In this document: positions 3,639 through 55,020 of the stretch, piece by piece | Position numbering within the stretch: the stretch's first letter is position 1 | Layout: every line of letters begins with the position of its first letter | Source of the DNA: an uncultured Gammaproteobacteria bacterium | GTDB taxonomy: Bacteria > Pseudomonadota > Gammaproteobacteria > Xanthomonadales > SZUA-38 | NCBI GenBank assembly: GCA_964351665.1 | Contig: CAYGPO010000006.1 | Span: 4,623-68,622, forward strand | Reading direction: 5' to 3' | DNA length: 64,000 bases | Position numbers and translations under genes: made by a program | The notes under the pieces: model-generated | Told to the model about the DNA's origin: nothing | The model's database searches: none | What the model saw: only the letters and a program-made list of their open reading frames with translations

Positions 3639-4007
3639 ATGAAAGTTAAACAATTTATTCAGTCCTATCAGAAGGCCTTTGACGCCTTTGATCCCCAGGC
3701 TATTGCTGATCTTTATCACTATCCCAGTCTGATCGCCTCGATGGATCAAAGCCAGGCTCTCCTTAGCCGTGACGACGCGGTTAAATATTTTGCCCGGGTG
3801 TGTGATTCTCACCGTCGCATGAGCTATCACAGAGCCCAGCTGCTAAGCAGCGAGCGCTCTACCTTGACGGAAAATCTGTCCATAGTGACGGTTCGCTGGC
3901 GTTTTGAGACGGCCACAGGGCAGGTCATCGTGGAATTTGACTGCACCTACACCCTGTGCGAGCTGGGCGAGGGTGTGAAGGCGTTTTCTGCCGTCGTTCA
4001 CGGCTGA
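3639..4007 (+). CDS. NTF2/SnoaL-like fold protein
   Basis: 122 aa. N-terminal FIQSYQKAFDAFDPQAIADLYHYPS and the size are typical of SnoaL/DUF4440-like proteins. Confidence 0.5.
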   Translation: MKVKQFIQSYQKAFDAFDPQAIADLYHYPSLIASMDQSQALLSRDDAVKYFARVCDSHRRMSYHRAQLLSSERSTLTENLSIVTVRWRFETATGQVIVEFDCTYTLCELGEGVKAFSAVVHG

Positions 4008-4196: not shown

Positions 4197-5381
4197 ATGA
4201 GCAGCGACCACAGAAGCCACCTGTTTACCTCGGAGTCTGTCTCTGAGGGGCATCCTGATAAAGTTGCCGACCAGATTTCTGATGCCATCTTGGACGAGAT
4301 CATCTCCCAGGACCCGGCGGCACGGGTGGCCTGCGAGACCATGGTCAAGACCGGCGTGGCAATTGTTGGTGGTGAAATTACCACCACTGCCTGGGTTGAC
4401 CTGGAAGAATTGATCCGCGGTGTGATCAACGACATCGGCTACAACTCGTCCGAGGTGGGATTTGACGGATCCACCTGCGCCGTGGTGAATATCATTGGCA
4501 AGCAGTCTCCGGACATTGCCCAGGGAGTAGACCGGGCGGCGCCTGAAGAGCAGGGCGCTGGTGATCAGGGTCTGATGTTCGGATACGCCACCGATGAGAC
4601 CGATGCGCTGATGCCAGCGCCGATCCACTTCTCCCATGAGCTGGTCCGGCGACAGGCCCAGGTGCGGCGCGAACTCAGCGACGGCCAGCAGTTCCTGCGA
4701 CCCGACGCCAAATCCCAGGTGACGTTTCGCTACGAAAATGGCCAGCCGGTGGCCATCGACGCGGTGGTGCTTTCAACCCAGCACAGCCCGGAAATTTCCC
4801 AGAGCAATCTGCATGAACTGGTTATGGAGCAGATTGTTAAGCCGGTTCTGCCCCATCAGTGGCTTTCTGCAGATACCAAGTATCACATCAACCCCACCGG
4901 CAAATTTGAGATTGGCGGTCCGGTTGGCGACTGTGGTTTGACTGGGCGGAAAATCATTGTTGATACCTATGGCGGCATGGCTCGTCACGGCGGCGGTGCA
5001 TTTTCTGGCAAAGACCCTTCCAAAGTGGATCGCTCTGCAGCTTACGCTGCGCGCTATGTCGCCAAGAATCTGGTGGCGGCTGGTCTGGCTAAGCGTTGCG
5101 AGATACAGGTTTCCTACGCCATCGGCGTTGCCCAACCTACCTCGGTGACGGTGGAAACCTTTGGTACTGAAACCGTGCCCGCCGAGCGCATCGAGGCGCT
5201 GGTGGCAGAGCACTTTGACCTGCGTCCCTACGGGCTGATGCAGATGCTCAATTTGATTCGCCCCATTTACCGGCAAACAGCTGCCTACGGGCATTTTGGC
5301 AGAACCTATGACGAGGCCAGCGGTGCCTTCAGCTGGGAGAGCACCGACAAGGCTGCTGACCTCCGGGCCGCCGCCGGCTGA
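4197..5381 (+). CDS. metK: S-adenosylmethionine synthetase
   Basis: 394 aa. Motifs [34 protein letters not shown] and [19 protein letters not shown]. Confidence 0.97.
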
Positions 5382-5437
5382 GTTGGAACTTAGCTAAACA
5401 AAACACGAACTTCACGGATTAACCTTTTAAATTCTGG

Positions 5438-5504
5438 CTGGTGAGAAGCGCTGCAAGCCCTTAGGGCCCAGGCTCACCATGTCATATCGTTTCAACGGCG
5501 CTAA
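5438..5504 (+). promoter_or_regulatory. SAH riboswitch (S-adenosylhomocysteine-responsive, ahcY leader)
   Basis: GGUGAG(5440-45)AAGCGCUGCAAGCCC-UUA-GGGCCCAGGCUCACC(5473-78)...UUCAACGGCGCU(5491-5502). P1 is GGUGAG/CUCACC, P2 is GCCC-UUA-GGGC, the pseudoknot is AGCGC(5447-51)/GCGCU(5498-5502). The conserved AGCGCUGC, AGGCUC and CAACGGCGCU blocks match my recollection of the SAH riboswitch consensus, and it sits directly upstream of ahcY. Confidence 0.75.
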
Positions 5505-5530
5505 CAAGACTTATCAGGAGCATATGTAAA

Positions 5531-6955
5531 ATGAGCGCAGTAATGGAACCTCAGGTAGGACAAGACTATCTGGTGAAAGATATTGAGCTGGCAGCTTGGG
5601 GCCGAAAGGAACTGGATATTGCCGCTTCCGAAATGCCGGGTCTTATGGCCCTTCGGGAAGAGTATGGCGAGTCAAAGCCGCTGACCGGAGCCCGTATCGC
5701 CGGGTCTCTGCACATGACCATCCAGACCGCAATGCTGATCGAAACACTCACCGCCCTGGGCGCTGAAGTTCGCTGGGCATCTTGCAACATCTATTCAACT
5801 CAGGATCACGCAGCGGCGGCCATGGCTGCCACCGGCATTCCTGTGTTCGCGTTCAAGGGTGAAAGCTTGGATGAGTATTGGGAATACACCCACCGCATTA
5901 TGCAATGGCACGATGGTGGTACCCCCAATATGATCCTGGATGACGGTGGTGACGCGACCATGCTTATCACCCTGGGTTCAGCGGCTGAGAAAGATCCATC
6001 AGTGCTGGACAACCCTGGCAGTGAAGAGGAACGTTGCCTGTTCGCCTCCATCCGTCAGCGTTTGGAAACTCAACACGGCTTTTACAGCAACATCCTGAAA
6101 AACATCAAGGGTGTGACGGAAGAAACCACCACCGGTGTCAGCCGTTTGTATCGCCTGGCCGAAAAAGGTGAGCTGCCGTTTCCGGCCATCAACGTTAATG
6201 ACTCAGTGACCAAGTCGAAGTTCGACAACCTTTATGGCTGCCGTGAGTCTCTGGTAGACGGCATCAAGCGCGCTACTGACGTGATGATCGCCGGTAAGAT
6301 CGCCATCGTTGCCGGTTACGGTGACGTGGGTAAAGGCTCGGCCCAGTCTCTGCGTGGTTTGGGTGCCAATGTGTGGATCACCGAAATTGACCCAATCTGT
6401 GCACTGCAGGCTGCCATGGAAGGCTATCGAGTAGTCAATATGGAAGACGACGGCATTGTTGAGCAGGCGGATATCTTTGTCACCGCCACCGGTAACTTTG
6501 ACGTGCTGCGGCAAGATCACATGGCGCGGATGAAGAACGAAGCCATTGTCTGCAACATCGGTCACTTCGATAATGAAATCGACGTCGCGGGTCTGGAAAA
6601 CCTGACCTGGGAGCCGATCAAAGATCAGGTAGACCATATCGTTTTCCCCGACGGCAAGCGCATCATTCTGCTGGCCGGTGGTCGATTGGTTAACCTGGGC
6701 TGTGGCACAGGACATCCGAGCTTTGTCATGTCCAACTCCTTCACCAACCAGACCCTGGCTCAGATGGAGTTGTTCAACAAGCCTGATGAGTACAAAAACG
6801 AAGTGTATGTGCTGCCTAAGCATCTGGACGAGAAAGTCGCCCGGCTGCACCTGGGACGTATCGGCGCCCGCCTGACCGAGCTTTCTGCTGAGCAGGCCGA
6901 GTACCTTGGTCTGCAGGTAGAAGGTCCGTACAAGCCGGATCATTACCGCTACTAA
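5531..6955 (+). CDS. ahcY: adenosylhomocysteinase
   Basis: 474 aa. Motifs [36 protein letters not shown] site and a C-terminal [10 protein letters not shown] tail. Confidence 0.97.
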
Positions 6956-47639: not shown

Positions 47640-47773
47640 GTCGTTAGCCGGTTTGGCCGCTGTTGCGGCTTGCGACACCAGCCTTGTCAGATATTTAGCA
47701 TAGCTAAGTAATGCGTTTTCCTCTCCCTGCCACTAAACTGGACCCATAAACCCCAGCAGGCGAAGGAAATTTG

Positions 47774-50443
47774 ATGTCCATCGATGAAAAACTGAGCTCC
47801 GATATGGACCCCCAGGAAACCCAGGAGTGGCTGGATGCGCTATCTGCGGTCATTAACGCTGATGGACCCGAGCGGGCCCATTATCTGCTGGAGAAAATGG
47901 TTGATCTGGCCCGGCGGTCCGGTGGTTATCTGCCCTACGACGCCACTACCGCCTACGTCAACACCATCCCTGCGAACCTTGAAAAACGCAGTCCCGGTGA
48001 TGCCGAGTTGGAATGGCGGCTGCGCTGCTGGATACGCTGGAACGCCATGGCGATGGTGGTTCGGACCAACCGCAAAGACAGCAGTTTGGGTGGGCACATC
48101 GCCAGTTTTGCTTCCGCCGCGACGCTCTACGATGTGGGGTTTAATCACTTCTGGCACGGTCCGGACGAAAATCACGGTGGAGACCTGCTGTATGTGCAGG
48201 GCCACTGCGCGCCGGGGATTTACGCCCGCAGCTTTCTTGAGGGCCGGATCAGCGAAGAGCAGATGGACAATTTCCGGCGCGAGGTGGATGGCAACGGCCT
48301 GTCCTCCTACCCCCATCCCTGGCTGATGCCAGACTATTGGCAGTTGCCCACGGTTTCCATGGGCCTGGGTCCTCTGATGGGCATCTATCAGGCGCGTTTT
48401 CTGCGGTATTTGCACAATCGGGAGCTGGCTGACACCGCCAAGCGCAAGGTCTGGGTGTTTTGCGGCGACGGCGAAATGGACGAGCCGGAATCCCTGGGTG
48501 CCATCTCCCTGGCGGGTCGGGAAAAGTTGGATAACCTGGTGTTTGTGATCAACTGCAATCTGCAGCGGCTGGACGGACCGGTGCGGGGCAACGGCAAGAT
48601 TATTCAGGAACTGGAGGGCGTGTTCCGCGGCGCCGGCTGGAACGTGATCAAAGTGATCTGGGGCTCATACTGGGATCCTCTGCTGGCCAAAGACACCAAA
48701 GGACTGCTGCGCCAGCGCATGGAAGAAGCCCTGGACGGCGACTATCAGAACTACAAGGCCCACGGCGGCGCCTACACCCGGGAGCATTTTTTCGGCAAGT
48801 ACCCGGAGCTTAAAGAGATGGTCTCCACCATGTCTGACGAGGACATCTGGCGGCTCAATCGCGGTGGCCACGATCCCCACAAGATTTTTGCCGCTTACGC
48901 CCAGGCCGTCAGTCATGAGGGTCAGCCAACGGTGATTTTGGCTAAGACCGTGAAAGGCTACGGAATGGGTCTTGCCGGTGAAGCGCAGAACACCACTCAC
49001 CAGCAGAAGAAGATGGACATTGAGTCAATTCGGGGTTTTCGCAATCGTTTCAACGTGCCCATAGCCGACGAACAGCTGGAGGAGCTGCCTTACTACAAGC
49101 CGCCGGAAGACAGTCCGGAAATCCAGTACATGCGCAAACGCCGGGAGGCCCTGGGGGGCTCGTTGCCGCGCCGCAATTTCTTTAACCCCGAGCCGCTGCA
49201 AGTCCCGGGAATGGCGCCTTTTGAGGCCCTGACCCAAGACTCTGGCGAGCGGGAAATGTCCACCACCATGGCCTTTGTCCGCTATCTGTCGATCTTGCTG
49301 CGGGACAAAGCCCTGGCGCCGCGTATCGTGCCGATACTCTGCGACGAGGCTCGCACCTTCGGCATGGAAGGGATGTTTCGCCAGCTGGGGATCTACTCCT
49401 CGGTAGGTCAGCTATACGAGCCGGAAGATTCTGACCAGCTGCTGTTTTACAAAGAAGACGTGAAGGGTCAAATTCTTCAGGAGGGCATCACCGAGGCCGG
49501 CGCCATGTCGTCCTGGATTGCCGCAGCCACCACCTACGCCAGCACCGGGATTCAGATGATCCCGTTTTATATTTACTATTCCATGTTCGGCTTCCAGCGC
49601 ATTGGTGATCTGGCCTGGGCCGCCGGCGACCTCAGGGCCCGGGGCTTTTTGCTCGGCGGCACCTCGGGTCGCACAACCCTCAACGGCGAGGGGCTGCAGC
49701 ATGAAGATGGCCATAGCCACCTGCTGGCCGGGGCCATTCCCAACTGCGTGAGCTATGACCCAACCTTCGCCTACGAAGTGGTGGTGATCATTAACGACGG
49801 TATGCAGCGGATGTATGTAGAGCAGCAGGACGTGTTCTATTACATCACCTTAACCAACGAGAACTATCACCAGCCGGCCATGCCCAAGGGCGCTGAGGAA
49901 GGCATCCGTAAAGGGCTGTATTTGCTGCAGAAAGGCGCCAAAGGTGAGCTGAGAGCCCAGTTGATGGGAAGCGGCACGATCCTGCGCGAGTCGGTAGCCG
50001 CGGCTGAGATGCTGGCGGCAGACTTCCAGGTCCAGTGTGACGTGTGGAGCGCCACCAGCATGAACGAGCTGCGCCGTGAGGGTGCGGCGGTGGCCCGTAC
50101 TAATCGCCTTAACCCCTCAGCCAAGCCCACCCCAAGCTATGTGGAAAGCTGCCTGGCCGCCAGCGAAGGGCCGGTGATTGCGGCCACCGACTATGTCCGG
50201 GCCTACGCGGATCAGATCCGGGAATTTGTGCCGCGTAGCTATCATGTGCTTGGCACCGACGGCTTCGGCCGCTCAGACACCCGGCCTAAGCTGAGAGAGT
50301 TTTTTGAGGTCAACCGCAACCACATTGCTTACACCACCATGTATGCCCTGTACCGGGATGGCAAGGTGACCAAGCGCACGTTGAGTGCAGCCCAAAAGAA
50401 ATACGGCATCGACGCCGACAAACCCAACCCGCTGAAGGTGTAA
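47774..50443 (+). CDS. aceE: pyruvate dehydrogenase E1 component (homodimeric type)
   Basis: About 889 aa. DPQETQEWLDALSAVI and GGHIASFASAATLYDVGFNHFW. ATG 47774 preferred over TTG 47771. Confidence 0.97.
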   Translation: MSIDEKLSSDMDPQETQEWLDALSAVINADGPERAHYLLEKMVDLARRSGGYLPYDATTAYVNTIPANLEKRSPGDAELEWRLRCWIRWNAMAMVVRTNRKDSSLGGHIASFASAATLYDVGFNHFWHGPDENHGGDLLYVQGHCAPGIYARSFLEGRISEEQMDNFRREVDGNGLSSYPHPWLMPDYWQLPTVSMGLGPLMGIYQARFLRYLHNRELADTAKRKVWVFCGDGEMDEPESLGAISLAGREKLDNLVFVINCNLQRLDGPVRGNGKIIQELEGVFRGAGWNVIKVIWGSYWDPLLAKDTKGLLRQRMEEALDGDYQNYKAHGGAYTREHFFGKYPELKEMVSTMSDEDIWRLNRGGHDPHKIFAAYAQAVSHEGQPTVILAKTVKGYGMGLAGEAQNTTHQQKKMDIESIRGFRNRFNVPIADEQLEELPYYKPPEDSPEIQYMRKRREALGGSLPRRNFFNPEPLQVPGMAPFEALTQDSGEREMSTTMAFVRYLSILLRDKALAPRIVPILCDEARTFGMEGMFRQLGIYSSVGQLYEPEDSDQLLFYKEDVKGQILQEGITEAGAMSSWIAAATTYASTGIQMIPFYIYYSMFGFQRIGDLAWAAGDLRARGFLLGGTSGRTTLNGEGLQHEDGHSHLLAGAIPNCVSYDPTFAYEVVVIINDGMQRMYVEQQDVFYYITLTNENYHQPAMPKGAEEGIRKGLYLLQKGAKGELRAQLMGSGTILRESVAAAEMLAADFQVQCDVWSATSMNELRREGAAVARTNRLNPSAKPTPSYVESCLAASEGPVIAATDYVRAYADQIREFVPRSYHVLGTDGFGRSDTRPKLREFFEVNRNHIAYTTMYALYRDGKVTKRTLSAAQKKYGIDADKPNPLKV

Positions 50444-50453
50444 GGCAAACAAC

Positions 50454-52166
50454 ATGGCAGAACAAACGGTAGTAAAGGTCCCGGATATTGGCGAGTTTGC
50501 TGACATTGCGGTGGTGGAAGTGCTGGTGGCCCCGGGGGACCAGGTCACCGCTGAACAGTCGCTGATTTCCCTTGAGAGCGACAAAGCCACCATGGAAATC
50601 CCCAGTCCCGGCGCTGGCATTGTGAGTGAGGTGAACGTTGCTGTGGGCGATCGGGTTTCTGAAGGCGATGCGATATTGGTGATGCAGGCCAGTCCAAAGC
50701 CTGAACAAGGCCAGGCGCCTGCCGCCAGCGTCCCATCGCAGCCCGTTGCCGAGCCCGTTGTCCAGACTGAGCCCGCGGCATCATCGGCTGCTCCGGCAGC
50801 AGCGCAGCCATCGGCAACGCAAGAGATTGCGGTAGTGGTTCCGGATATCGGCGATTTTGACAGTGTTGATGTGGTGGAAGTGCTGGTTGCGGTGGGGGAT
50901 GTGGTGGCGGTTGAGCAATCCCTGGTCAGCCTTGAGAGCGACAAAGCCACCATGGAGATTCCCAGCAGCCACGCTGGCACGGTCAGCGCCCTGCATATCA
51001 GCGTTGGTGATAAGGTCGCCGCCGGCGCTCTGGTTGTGACCCTTCAGTCCGAGGCTACGGGGTCAGACAGCTCTGGGTCTGGCAATCAAAGTGTACCGAA
51101 GGCCCCGGCGCAAAGCGCTGCGCCGCCGCCGGCTCAAGTGGCCGAAGCTTCAGGGTCAGCCAACAGCGCCGCGGCCGCATCGGCAGACGATGGTGACCGC
51201 CGGGCGCCGCCGGTGTCCTTTGATGCCAGCACCCGCAAACCCGGTGACGTGCCCCATGCCAGTCCGTCGGTACGCCGTGAGGCGCGCCAGCTGGGGGTGG
51301 ACCTGCAGGAGGTCAGCGGCACTGGACGCAAGGGCCGAATCACCACTGAGGACGTGCGCCAATTTGTGAAGGGCGTAATGAACCGGAAAGGCTCCGGCGC
51401 CCAGGCCACGGCAGCGGCGGCCAACGGTTTGAGTCTATTGCCCTGGCCGAAGGTGGATTTCAGCAAGTACGGTCCGGTGCAAACCCAGCCCTTGTCGCGA
51501 ATCCAGAAAATTTCCGGCGCTAATTTGGCCCGCAACTGGGCCATGATTCCCCACGTGACCCAAAATGAGCAGGCCGATATTACCGAGATGGAGGCCTTTC
51601 GTAAGTCTCAGTCAGAGGTGGCCAAGGCTCAGGGCATCAAGCTGACCCCGCTGGCCTTTTTGATCAAGGCGGTGGTTGCTGCGCTGAAGGCTTTCCCCCA
51701 GTTCAACGCATCCCTGGACGACAGCGGCGAGAACCTGGTGTTAAAGCAGTACTTTCACGTCGGCGTTGCGGTGGATACCCCCGACGGACTGGTGGTGCCG
51801 GTGATCAGAGACTGTGATCAAAAATCCTTGTTTCAGCTGGCCTCCGAGGTGGTGCAAGCCAGTATTAGAGCCAGGGATAAAAAACTGTCAGCAACGGACA
51901 TGAGCGGCGGCTGTTTTTCCATCTCATCCCTGGGCGGCATTGGCGGCACCTCCTTCACGCCCATCATCAATGCCCCCGAGGTGGCCATTTTGGGCGTATG
52001 CCGGTCCGCGACCCAGCCGGTTTGGAACGGCCAGGAATTTGAGCCGCGGCTGATCTTGCCCTTGAGCCTGTCCTATGATCATCGGGTTATCGACGGGGCC
52101 ACCGCTGCGCGCTTCGCCGTCTACTTGGCTGATATGCTGACCGATATTCGTCGCCTGCTGCTGTGA
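50454..52166 (+). CDS. aceF: dihydrolipoyllysine-residue acetyltransferase (E2) with two lipoyl domains
   Basis: Two SLESDKATMEIPS lipoyl modules, a subunit-binding domain (ASPSVRREARQLGVDL) and catalytic SLSYDHRVIDGA. Confidence 0.95.
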   Translation: MAEQTVVKVPDIGEFADIAVVEVLVAPGDQVTAEQSLISLESDKATMEIPSPGAGIVSEVNVAVGDRVSEGDAILVMQASPKPEQGQAPAASVPSQPVAEPVVQTEPAASSAAPAAAQPSATQEIAVVVPDIGDFDSVDVVEVLVAVGDVVAVEQSLVSLESDKATMEIPSSHAGTVSALHISVGDKVAAGALVVTLQSEATGSDSSGSGNQSVPKAPAQSAAPPPAQVAEASGSANSAAAASADDGDRRAPPVSFDASTRKPGDVPHASPSVRREARQLGVDLQEVSGTGRKGRITTEDVRQFVKGVMNRKGSGAQATAAAANGLSLLPWPKVDFSKYGPVQTQPLSRIQKISGANLARNWAMIPHVTQNEQADITEMEAFRKSQSEVAKAQGIKLTPLAFLIKAVVAALKAFPQFNASLDDSGENLVLKQYFHVGVAVDTPDGLVVPVIRDCDQKSLFQLASEVVQASIRARDKKLSATDMSGGCFSISSLGGIGGTSFTPIINAPEVAILGVCRSATQPVWNGQEFEPRLILPLSLSYDHRVIDGATAARFAVYLADMLTDIRRLLL

Positions 52167-52672
52167 GCGGACCGCACAAGCTGGGGCGGGGCATGATGCT
52201 GGTGGCAGCACTGGGTGCACTGGCCTTGCTGACGGTGACCTTTGAGCACCTGATTGAAGGTCAACGCAATCCGAATCAGCAGCCGTTGACCGTTGAAGGT
52301 GATGATTTTGCCGAGGTGACTCTCACCGCCAACCGTCAGGATCATTATGTGGCGGGCGCGCTTATCAACGGCCAGGAAGTGGAGATCATGGTGGACACCG
52401 GCGCCACCCAGGTTGCCATCGCCGATTCGGTTGCTCGCAGGCTGGGTCTACCCCGGGGAGCGCCGTTTACGGTATCCACCGCCAACGGTTCGGCCACCGC
52501 GTATACAACCCGGATCACCTCAATCAGGCTGGGCGCGATAGAAATGCGCGACATCGCCGCGGCCATCGTCCCCAATATGGAGTCGCCAGACGTGCTGCTG
52601 GGGATGAATTTTCTGCGTGAACTGGAGCTGGTGCAGAGCCGGGGGCAGCTGGTGCTGCGTCAAAACCGCTAA
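52163..52672 (+). CDS. membrane-anchored retropepsin-like (clan AA) aspartic protease
   Basis: GTG start overlaps the aceF stop (GTGA); ATG 52193 is an alternative. TM is MMLVAALGALALLTVTF. Catalytic MVDTGATQVAI sits at 52394-52408. C-terminal LLGMNFL. Confidence 0.7.
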   Translation: MSGPHKLGRGMMLVAALGALALLTVTFEHLIEGQRNPNQQPLTVEGDDFAEVTLTANRQDHYVAGALINGQEVEIMVDTGATQVAIADSVARRLGLPRGAPFTVSTANGSATAYTTRITSIRLGAIEMRDIAAAIVPNMESPDVLLGMNFLRELELVQSRGQLVLRQNR

Positions 52673-52696
52673 TCGTATTTTTTACAGGAACCCCCT

Positions 52697-54454
52697 ATGA
52701 GTAATCCGATCACAATCACCGTTCCGGACATTGGAGACTTTGCTGAGATACCGGTGGTCGAGGTGTTGGTCAGCGAAGGCGACCAGGTCGCCGCCGAGCA
52801 ATCTTTGCTCAGCCTTGAGAGTGACAAGGCGACGATGGAAATTCCCTCGCCCCAGGCCGGCACCGTCGGGCGGGTGCTGATTCAGGTCGGCGACAAGGTT
52901 TCTGAAGGTACGCCAATCGTTGAGCTGGCTGCTGCCCAGTTGCCGGCGGAGCCCAGCACTCCCGGCCAGGATAAGCCCGGCGCAGATCAGCACCCTGCAG
53001 ACTCCGCGGCGCCCGCCGGTGCCGCTGTTGACGGGGACGAGGTGGTTGCCCAGGTGGTGGTTCTCGGATCCGGGCCTGGCGGTTACACCGCCGCCTTTCG
53101 GGCCGCCGACCTGGGTTTGAAGACTGTCCTGATTGAGCGGTACCCGGCCCTTGGTGGAGTTTGTTTGAACGTTGGCTGTATCCCCTCAAAGGCACTATTG
53201 CATACCTCAGCAGTGATCGATGAGGCGGCTGCCATGCAGGCTCATGGGGTGACCTTTGGCAGGCCAAAGATCGACCTGAAAAAGCTTCGAGGGTTTAAAG
53301 ATTCGGTGGTCAAACAGCTCACCGGTGGGCTCAAGGGTCTGGCTAAAAAACGCAAGGTTAGAGTCATTGAAGGCACTGGCAGGTTCAGTTCCGCCAATAC
53401 CATTGAGGTTAGCAACGGCGAGACCAGCACCCGGGTGCGGTTTGACAAGGCCATCATTGCGGCGGGATCGAAGGCGGTAAAGCTGCCTGGCATGCCCTGG
53501 GATGATCCCCGGCTGATGGATTCCACCGATGCCCTGGATATGGCGGATATTCCCCGCCGAATGCTGATTATTGGTGGCGGGATTATTGGCATGGAAATGG
53601 CCAGCGTATACGCGGCGCTGGGTTCCAAGATCACCGTTTGTGAGCTGATGGATCAGCTGATGCCGGGAGCCGATCTGGATCTGGTTGGTCCGTTCCATAA
53701 GTTTGTTAGGCCGCGCTATGAAAACATTTTTCTTGGCACTAAAGTCACCTCCATAGTGGCTAACAAGCAAGGCCTGAAAGCCACTTTTGAAGGCGCCGGC
53801 GCGCCGGCGGAAGACACCTTTGACCGGGTGCTGGTGGCGGTGGGACGCAGCCCAAATGGCGCCAAGATCGACGCTGAAAAAGCTGGGGTTGAAGTCACGG
53901 ACCGGGGCTACATCCACGTGGACCACCAGATGCGTACCAACGTTCCTCATATCTTTGCTGTTGGCGACATCGTGGGCCAACCCATGCTGGCCCACAAGGC
54001 AACCCACGAGGCCAAGGTGGCAGCAGAGGTCTGTGCCGGCATGAAATCGGCCTTTGAAGCCCGGGTGATTCCCTCGGTGGCTTATACTGATCCGGAGGTG
54101 GCGTGGGTAGGTCTGACAGAAATCGATGCTAAAGCTCAGGGCATTGCCTTTGAGAAGGGTGTGTTTCCCTGGGCTGCCAGCGGCAGGGCCCTGGGTCTGG
54201 CCCGCAGCGAAGGCATGACCAAGCTGTTGTTTGATCCAGTCACCGAAAGAGTGCTTGGCGGGGGTATAGTGGGCCCTCACGCCGGCGACTTGATTGCTGA
54301 AATCTCCCTGGCCATAGAAATGGGTTGCGACGCCGCTGATATTGGCATGACTATTCATCCACACCCAACGCTGTCAGAAACCGTCGCCTTTTCCGCCGAG
54401 GCGTTTGAGGGCACCATTACCGATCTTTACCTGCCTAAAAAGGCGTCTAAATGA
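52697..54454 (+). CDS. lpdA: dihydrolipoyl dehydrogenase (E3) with N-terminal lipoyl domain
   Basis: N-terminal lipoyl module (SLLSLESDKATMEIPS), Ala/Pro linker, VVLGSGPGGY, redox disulfide GGVCLNVGCIPSK and C-terminal HPHPTLSE. Confidence 0.95.
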   Translation: MSNPITITVPDIGDFAEIPVVEVLVSEGDQVAAEQSLLSLESDKATMEIPSPQAGTVGRVLIQVGDKVSEGTPIVELAAAQLPAEPSTPGQDKPGADQHPADSAAPAGAAVDGDEVVAQVVVLGSGPGGYTAAFRAADLGLKTVLIERYPALGGVCLNVGCIPSKALLHTSAVIDEAAAMQAHGVTFGRPKIDLKKLRGFKDSVVKQLTGGLKGLAKKRKVRVIEGTGRFSSANTIEVSNGETSTRVRFDKAIIAAGSKAVKLPGMPWDDPRLMDSTDALDMADIPRRMLIIGGGIIGMEMASVYAALGSKITVCELMDQLMPGADLDLVGPFHKFVRPRYENIFLGTKVTSIVANKQGLKATFEGAGAPAEDTFDRVLVAVGRSPNGAKIDAEKAGVEVTDRGYIHVDHQMRTNVPHIFAVGDIVGQPMLAHKATHEAKVAAEVCAGMKSAFEARVIPSVAYTDPEVAWVGLTEIDAKAQGIAFEKGVFPWAASGRALGLARSEGMTKLLFDPVTERVLGGGIVGPHAGDLIAEISLAIEMGCDAADIGMTIHPHPTLSETVAFSAEAFEGTITDLYLPKKASK

Positions 54455-55020
54455 GGGCTAGTGTCATGTTGAAGACTGTAAATTTCATGGGTGTTTCAGC
54501 CGTAATGCTGATGGTTTGCGCCTTGGCAGCGTGTTCTGTATCACCCCGGGCCGGCTATCGAGCCGGTCAGCTGGACGACATGACCCAGGAGACCATCTAT
54601 CGCTTTCAGCAGACTGACCCTGGTATTGAACGACTGTTTGAAACTGCCGTGGGCTACGCGGTGTTTCCCACCATCGGTGCCGGTGCTGCCGGGGTAGGGG
54701 GGGCATATGGTCGAGGGCAGGTTTATGAAAACGGCGCCTTTGTGGGCTACTGCGACATGACCCAGGCAAGTGTTGGGGTGCAGTTGGGGGGGCAGGCTTA
54801 CAGCGAAGTGATCTTTTTTAACTCCAATGATGCAATGCAGTGGTTCAAGTCAGGCGAGTTTAGCTTTTCCGGGCAGGCCTCGGCGGTGGCATTGAAGGAA
54901 GGAGTTTCTGCCAACGCTAACTTCCGCAATGGCGTTGCGGTCTACACCCAGGCCAAGGGCGGTCTCATGTACCAGGCCTCCATCGGCGGCCAGAAGTTCC
55001 GCTTTGAAAGTGACCAATAG
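54451..55020 (+). CDS. SYLF (Ysc84/DUF500) domain lipoprotein
   Basis: ATG overlaps the lpd stop (ATGA). Lipobox LAAC. AVGYAVFPTIGAGAAGVGGAYGRGQVY...SVGVQLGGQAYSEVIFF is the SYLF pattern. Confidence 0.65.
   Translation: MRASVMLKTVNFMGVSAVMLMVCALAACSVSPRAGYRAGQLDDMTQETIYRFQQTDPGIERLFETAVGYAVFPTIGAGAAGVGGAYGRGQVYENGAFVGYCDMTQASVGVQLGGQAYSEVIFFNSNDAMQWFKSGEFSFSGQASAVALKEGVSANANFRNGVAVYTQAKGGLMYQASIGGQKFRFESDQ

Follow-up and report, generated by a model that had tools for sequence, protein, structure and literature searches.

A retropepsin-like aspartic protease gene between aceF and lpd in gammaproteobacteria: conserved, and a probable passenger of the pyruvate dehydrogenase operon

Why would a gene for a predicted membrane protease be placed among the genes of a cytoplasmic enzyme complex? 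The question is raised by a 64,000-nucleotide (nt) stretch of DNA from an uncultured gammaproteobacterium (contig CAYGPO010000006.1 of assembly GCA_964351665.1, hereafter the window), in which the genes for the E2 and E3 subunits of pyruvate dehydrogenase (PDH), aceF and lpd, are separated by an open reading frame (ORF) of 169 amino acids (aa) on the forward strand (52163–52672). A sequence-only reading of the window had described this ORF as a clan AA retropepsin-like protease with an N-terminal membrane helix, starting in a GTGA overlap with the aceF stop codon and ending 24 nt before lpd, and had hinted at a special link to central metabolism. When compared with the sequence and the ORF list, all of its coordinates were right. 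Based on the analyses below, we consider it probable that the gene encodes a functional, membrane-tethered and periplasm-facing homodimeric protease, which is carried as a passenger in the PDH operon, is produced at low output after aceF, and acts on one or more envelope proteins.

The family to which the protein belongs can be assigned with very high confidence from its sequence. It scores 101.6 bits (E = 3.1e-29) on the NCBIfam hidden Markov model (HMM) TIGR02281, for which the curated cutoff is 57.95, with residues 51–167 aligned to profile positions 1–121, and it also matches PF13975 (96.9 bits) and PF13650 (80.8 bits; Pfam models, as PF13975). A profile search of the PDB using 36 homologues placed APRc (5c9b, 5c9d) first (E = 6e-27), with DDI1 and retroviral proteases far behind. 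The AlphaFold model (pLDDT 92.4) comprises one N-terminal helix (residues 6–35) and an all-beta domain, and Foldseek with this model again returned APRc chains at the top (E = 1e-11, target TM-score up to 0.82), followed by the HIV-1 and EIAV proteases and DDI1 (E about 3e-5, probability 1.00). The catalytic domain of APRc itself scores 138.5 bits on TIGR02281; the window protease and one biochemically characterized enzyme therefore share a curated family. Thus the HMM match, the helix in the AlphaFold model and the match to APRc bear out the class and the membrane helix proposed in the sequence-only reading. The family itself is already known and curated, and the public name of a close homologue (P0002, 80% identical) is 'TIGR02281 family clan AA aspartic protease'. 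It is the placement between aceF and lpd that is a context not found in the literature: literature searches for such a protease in connection with aceF and lpd returned nothing relevant, nor did one for TIGR02281.

Seven residues (D78, T79, G80, A81, L145, L146, and G147) are invariant in the 36 homologues. The catalytic aspartate lies in a hydrophobic context, M-V-D78-T-G-A-T, with the D-T-G-A-T part encoded by GAC ACC GGC GCC ACC at 52394–52408 (+), while L145-L146-G147 (52595–52603, +) corresponds to the hydrophobic-hydrophobic-Gly motif of retropepsins that was defined for APRc (PMC4140852). The window protease hence combines three marks of a retropepsin, namely D-T-G-A in a hydrophobic context, an L-L-G motif, and a single-lobe, mostly beta fold. 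The family is large: one protein search returned 316 homologues, and in another the window protease was matched by 7014 clusters (50% identity) with E <= 0.001, of which 1722 reached E <= 1e-10. With the anti-phage defence models of PADLOC, only a weak, fold-level resemblance was found (PDC-M08B, 17.6 bits, E = 7e-4). In four longer homologues (P0144, P0187, P0210, and P0255; 304–366 aa), the query matches two separate stretches, indicating single chains with two retropepsin-like domains, which are of interest for the origin of the two-lobed pepsins. No further copy of the protease was found within the 64-kb window.

To what extent is this gene conserved? A genome scan with a seven-sequence protease alignment yielded 34 loci, a sample biased to close relatives and to protease-bearing loci, at which gene order was read by tblastn with the window proteins. 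The order aceE-aceF-protease-lpd was found at 10 of these loci (L001–L008, L021, and L022), and the same order occurs at three metagenome loci (L093, L115, and L121). L001–L008 are metagenome-assembled genomes (MAGs) under the labels Lysobacterales, Gammaproteobacteria or Pseudomonadota, their protease identities being 63–82%, and L021 and L022, the latter from Wenzhouxiangellaceae, are more distant (41–45%). A single shared insertion of the window clade and the L021/L022 clade was not resolved in a neighbour-joining tree of the proteases. The same 169-aa gene is called in independent assemblies. Between L003 and L004 (dS 0.46), the dN/dS of the protease is 0.006, and it ranges from 0.04 to 0.32 in the other pairs, with dS saturated in the most distant of them; the values for lpd in the same pairs are 0.05–0.22. 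Judged from these sequences, the protease gene is real and is under purifying selection as strong as that on lpd, because its dN/dS is low and similar to that of lpd. The sequence-only reading had named absence or degeneration of the ORF in relatives, with no sign of purifying selection, as evidence that would count against it; we found instead an intact ORF with dN/dS below 1. Further, the GC content at third codon positions is 0.71 in the protease gene and 0.64–0.74 in its neighbours, and codon usage is equal.

The junction between aceF and the protease gene reads CTG CTG TGA GCG, with the GTG start at 52163–52165 and the TGA stop of aceF at 52164–52166, forming a four-nt GTGA overlap (52163–52166, +) that is presumed to be a site of translational coupling. 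The overlap, which the sequence-only reading had pointed out for the window, turned out to be conserved: nine of the ten PDH-linked relatives have ATGA or GTGA at this place. In three of them (L001, L002, and L004) the overlapping codon is ATG, which speaks for a true start at GTG 52163. A start at the internal ATG of 52193 was considered and set aside, as both the overlap start and an R-x-G-R-G-M sequence upstream of the helix are conserved. No Shine-Dalgarno-like purine run was found upstream of the GTG. A four-nt overlap of stop and start codons is the classic arrangement for termination-reinitiation. We infer that ribosomes have to complete aceF before they can translate the protease: with no separate ribosome-binding site to start from, they would terminate at the TGA of aceF and begin again at the GTG that overlaps it, and protease output would be low and proportional to that of aceF. 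Such reinitiation would provide a steady, low supply of protease tied to a constitutively expressed operon.

Downstream, the protease gene ends with TAA (52670–52672), and a 24-nt spacer (52673–52696, +; 8–55 nt in relatives) leads to the ATG of lpd at 52697, with an AGGA at 52686–52689, seven bases before that ATG, as a Shine-Dalgarno-like site for lpd. In a scan of the + strand between aceF and lpd, we found no promoter- or terminator-like sites, and the overall counts of such sites were at shuffle level. The next gene, which encodes a SYLF/Ysc84-domain protein, overlaps the lpd stop codon with its own ATG (ATGA). Because of the lack of promoter- and terminator-like sites between aceF and lpd, and the similar overlap of the SYLF gene with the lpd stop, the sequence suggests that aceE-aceF-protease-lpd-SYLF is probably one transcription unit, in which two envelope proteins are coupled to two PDH subunits.

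Where would the protease act? Residues 13–31 form a hydrophobic segment (codons 52199–52255, +; mean Kyte-Doolittle value 1.96) that is recognized by hydropathy, as a helix in the AlphaFold model, and in the alignment of the 36 homologues, in which it is preceded by a conserved basic motif, K/R-x-G-R-G-M. The anchor helix leads into an N-P-N motif (residues 36–38; 52268–52276, +), which is conserved in gamma- and beta-type homologues, with P37 invariant in all 36; it could be a helix cap, a processing site or an aid to dimerization. Members of TIGR02281 have a variable N-terminal region carrying a predicted transmembrane helix, and the N-terminus of the window protease fits this layout, as do the 36 homologues with the same arrangement. 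The charge is +2 on the N side of the helix and −1 on its C side, and the residues before the helix are likewise basic in most of the 36 homologues; P0115 instead has a signal-peptide-like N-terminus. With moderate confidence, we propose an N-in/C-out topology, because of the basic N flanks in homologues and because APRc is also predicted to be N-in, C-out (PMC4140852). In this topology, the short basic N-terminus would lie in the cytoplasm, the helix would hold the protease in the inner membrane, and a short tether would present the catalytic domain to the periplasm. As each 169-aa chain has a single DTG and APRc is a dimer (PMC4140852), two protease chains would be expected to pair into one active site, as in all retropepsins.

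Is the insertion, then, a feature of this type of PDH operon? The sequence-only reading had called for a survey of aceF-lpd junctions, which we anchored on the AceF catalytic domain, so as to be unbiased, and carried out over 80 metagenome loci. The insertion does recur in relatives, as described above, but operons of this type mostly lack an insert at the junction. The two genes are directly adjacent at 49 of the 80 loci, and the protease follows aceF at four, three of which have it immediately before lpd. Other inserts separate aceF from lpd at no fewer than 12 of the 80 loci, including MscS-like channels and a carbon-nitrogen hydrolase (identified with Pfam). Such non-protease inserts occupy, for example, positions 3724–4812 in L101, 3718–4794 in L069, 3743–4660 in L103, 3714–4361 in L116, and 3714–4409 in L122, and FG-GAP repeat proteins follow aceF in L111 (3727–6466). 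In Ralstonia/Alcaligenes eutropha, Hein and Steinbuechel reportedly described in 1994 a cluster pdhA-pdhB-ORF3-pdhL, with an unnamed ORF between pdhB and pdhL; the inserts of L116 and L122, which encode secreted proteins of 215–231 aa with no Pfam match, may or may not be of this ORF3 type. In Neisseria gonorrhoeae (L044), the 565-nt gap between aceF and lpd contains a 96-aa ORF (3684–3974) that matches Pfam NarE with 132 bits, a NarE remnant. No insert was found at the junction in Cupriavidus (plasmid copy), Variovorax or Defluviimonas. Given that the inserts are so varied, and that several of them encode membrane or secreted proteins, the junction appears to be a recurrent landing site for unrelated genes. 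Across lineages, neither the 80 AceF loci nor the 34 protease loci revealed a consistent co-occurrence of the protease with PDH genes.

The protease family is also found in other genomic contexts, with no PDH gene within 6 kb at 23 of the 34 loci of the protease scan. In Pseudomonas and Ventosimonas, the order is parE, a phytase-like gene, the TIGR02281 protease gene and parC; these copies in the topoisomerase IV operon (4001–4528 in L039, Pseudomonas sp.; 5887–6498 in L009, Ventosimonas) have a four-nt overlap upstream and are separated from parC by no more than 8 nt. On metagenome and MAG contigs (L035, 6001–6600; L036; L037; L038, 6001–6573), a TIGR02281 gene lies 8–18 nt behind orn, which encodes an oligoribonuclease of the RNase_T family, and adjoins a divergent M48 peptidase gene. 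In Thiotrichaceae-like genomes, the protease gene is located behind a short-chain dehydrogenase gene. These contexts suggest that the family repeatedly rides inside or behind cytoplasmic housekeeping genes. Other arrangements were observed as well. In a gammaproteobacterial MAG (L024), the protease gene (5866–6384) is about 800 bp from the end of aceE (5062) and on the opposite strand, being transcribed divergently from aceE-aceF-lpd, with a 235-aa membrane-protein ORF in between. Alphaproteobacterial loci have tandem pairs of TIGR02281-like genes (4334–5038 and 5103–5675 in L023; 5002–5727 and 5761–6363 in L026), in which the upstream copy has a longer, multi-helix N-terminus like that of APRc, and which are followed by a phosphoglucomutase/phosphomannomutase gene. 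Of 42 plasmid records that carry TIGR02281 or retropepsin-like genes (among them Nitrosococcus, Marinobacter, Methylomonas, and Acidovorax), 19 are predicted to be conjugative.

The other PDH genes of the operon were identified with curated models. The first gene of the transcription unit, aceE (47771–50443, +), encodes a homodimeric-type E1 (TIGR00759, 1453.6 bits; Pfam PDH_E1_M), which begins with TTG at 47771 in the ORF list, although the adjoining codon, ATG at 47774, may be the real start. It is followed by aceF (50454–52166, +), whose 570-aa product (TIGR01348, 709 bits) has two lipoyl domains, one E3-binding domain and one catalytic domain according to Pfam (Biotin_lipoyl twice, E3_binding, and 2-oxoacid_dh). 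The product of lpd (52697–54454, +; 585 aa; TIGR01350, 486.5 bits) carries an extra N-terminal Biotin_lipoyl domain at residues 6–77. The SYLF gene (54451–55020, +) matches PF04366 with 31.2 bits and NF049970 with 73 bits, the latter under its cutoff of 200; its product is related to BPSL1445 lipoproteins and has a lipobox-like L-A-A-C. The SYLF gene follows lpd in L001–L005, L007 and L008, and the sequence of L006 ends before that point. Downstream of lpd in L021 and L022, no SYLF match was found by tblastn. No RNA family was found in the PDH operon with Rfam; the sole Rfam family in the window is a SAH riboswitch (RF01057) at 5437–5510 (+), with 44.4 bits and a gathering score of 37.

Taken together, we favour the explanation that the protease is a passenger, although this hitch-hiking interpretation, like the topology, is held with moderate confidence. 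It proposes that the aceF-lpd junction tolerates inserts, with different unrelated genes gained in other lineages, and that the substrate would be one or more envelope proteins rather than PDH. To our knowledge, no physiological substrate has been firmly established for any TIGR02281 protease. Several points weigh against this explanation. What is said above of transcription, translation, topology, dimerization, and activity is inference; a G-rich run precedes the internal ATG at 52193, which might serve as a second start; the positive-inside signal is only modest (+2 vs. −1); and the reported location of APRc is the outer membrane rather than the inner one (PMC4140852). Presence in every close relative is not demonstrable from the genome scan, due to its bias to protease-bearing loci. 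In addition, the arrangement is kept down to about 40% protease identity, which could reflect selected co-expression with PDH. It is conceivable that the protease, perhaps together with the SYLF lipoprotein, adjusts the envelope to respiratory carbon flux, that its target is a pool of lipoyl-bearing E3 or E2 that is exported or associated with the membrane, or that the aceF-lpd junction is a preferred docking site for envelope genes (those of the protease, the MscS-like channel, the secreted proteins, and NarE) that need steady, PDH-scaled expression, but we regard these readings as quite improbable.

A more specific proposal would be that the protease processes or regulates the SYLF lipoprotein, or that both form an envelope module dosed to respiratory metabolism. 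Both genes are coupled to PDH genes by four-nt overlaps, the order aceE-aceF-protease-lpd-SYLF is kept in seven of the relatives, and both products are predicted to be extracytoplasmic, from the lipobox of one and the anchor topology of the other. However, L021 and L022 carry the protease between aceF and lpd without a SYLF match downstream, and the TIGR02281 genes at parE-parC, orn and the short-chain dehydrogenase gene have no SYLF neighbour, so that we find this proposal unlikely. Alternatively, the protease might act on PDH itself, by trimming the flexible linkers that join the lipoyl domains in E2 or in the lipoyl-bearing E3, or by tethering or regulating the complex at the membrane. This would fit with the tight coupling to aceF at nine of ten loci, with the persistence of the arrangement to about 40% protease identity, and with the extra lipoyl domain of E3 in all protease-bearing PDH operons. 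By contrast, the same lipoyl-bearing E3 mostly occurs without the protease, both at the loci where aceF and lpd are adjacent and in Cupriavidus, Variovorax and Defluviimonas; many TIGR02281 genes are located away from PDH; the catalytic domain is predicted to be across the membrane from the complex; and the motif (GRGM) of the 12-residue cytoplasmic tail is common to homologues that are not linked to PDH. Action on PDH is therefore very unlikely in our view. Finally, the ORF could be a decaying or inactive remnant of a mobile element or retroelement, or a pseudo-protease, as might be suspected from the Pfam names gag-asp_proteas and RVP, which recall retroelements, and from TIGR02281 genes on conjugative plasmids. 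Yet none of the catalytic and structural signature residues varies, dN/dS lies well below 1, the base composition is host-like, the ORF list has no gag, reverse transcriptase or integrase ORF nearby, and the family member APRc is an active enzyme (PMC4140852); this explanation is largely refuted, and we consider it extremely improbable.

Returning to the passenger explanation, the special link to central metabolism at which the sequence-only reading had hinted is not supported, given that most junctions have no insert, that others have unrelated inserts, that the family also occurs at parE-parC and orn, and that the catalytic domain is predicted to be periplasmic. A function in PDH is thus not implied by the position of the gene, because the junction inserts are varied, the family is found elsewhere, and the predicted location is on the opposite side of the membrane. 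There is no new mechanism here; rather, the locus provides a clean, conserved example of protease expression by putative reinitiation after a highly expressed housekeeping gene. Since the aceF-lpd junction repeatedly accepts unrelated passengers, annotators should not deduce a PDH function from the neighbouring genes here. Further, there are thousands of TIGR02281 proteases in free-living proteobacteria, and the locus could steer the choice of a cultivable relative, for example in the Wenzhouxiangellaceae, for substrate discovery.

The known system closest to this one is the protease APRc (RC1339) from Rickettsia conorii (PDB 5C9B, 5C9D, and 5C9F), which resembles the window protease in its family, its D-T-G-A and L-L-G motifs, its fold, and the combination of a membrane-anchored N-terminus with a soluble catalytic domain that is predicted to lie outside. 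APRc is an obligate dimer with an acidic pH optimum, its autoprocessing requires the catalytic aspartate, and HIV protease inhibitors act on it (PMC4140852). However, the two proteins share only 21–26% identity in structural alignments, and APRc has 231 aa and three predicted transmembrane helices, whereas the window protease has 169 aa and one. APRc comes from an obligate intracellular alphaproteobacterium, in which its location was the outer membrane (PMC4140852), unlike the inner-membrane location that we propose, and its physiological substrate is disputed (PMC10414592). In our literature search, no report of a PDH context for APRc was found.

PerP of Caulobacter crescentus is cited as a bacterial retroviral-type protease (PMC4140852). 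In function, it is the best analogue of the window protease. By description, PerP is membrane-anchored and periplasm-facing and cleaves a specific envelope or polarity protein, which is the kind of job that we propose for the window protease. Chen et al. (2006) reportedly showed that PerP, an aspartic protease of the periplasm, truncates PodJ; substrates of the PodJ type are confined to Caulobacter-like bacteria. Pseudomonas likewise has bacterial aspartic proteases with a retropepsin fold, RloA and RimB (PMC11957051, PMC11957791). RloA proteins are exported and are needed for the envelope-related traits of osmotic tolerance, biofilm formation, and cell shape (PMC11957051). The RimB-related group is described as distinct from the window protease in having signal peptides instead of an anchor helix and in cleaving glutamate-rich tails, and it does not appear to belong to TIGR02281.

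With respect to the junction rather than the protease, ORF3 of R. eutropha has the same position in the same type of operon with a lipoyl-bearing E3, and an unnamed gene in this cluster of R. eutropha and R. solanacearum (RSc1602 / Q44000) is documented indirectly (PMC2790312). NarE of Neisseria offers a parallel for the position: its gene lies at the same junction, in the same type of operon with a lipoyl-bearing E3, but it encodes an unrelated ADP-ribosyltransferase.

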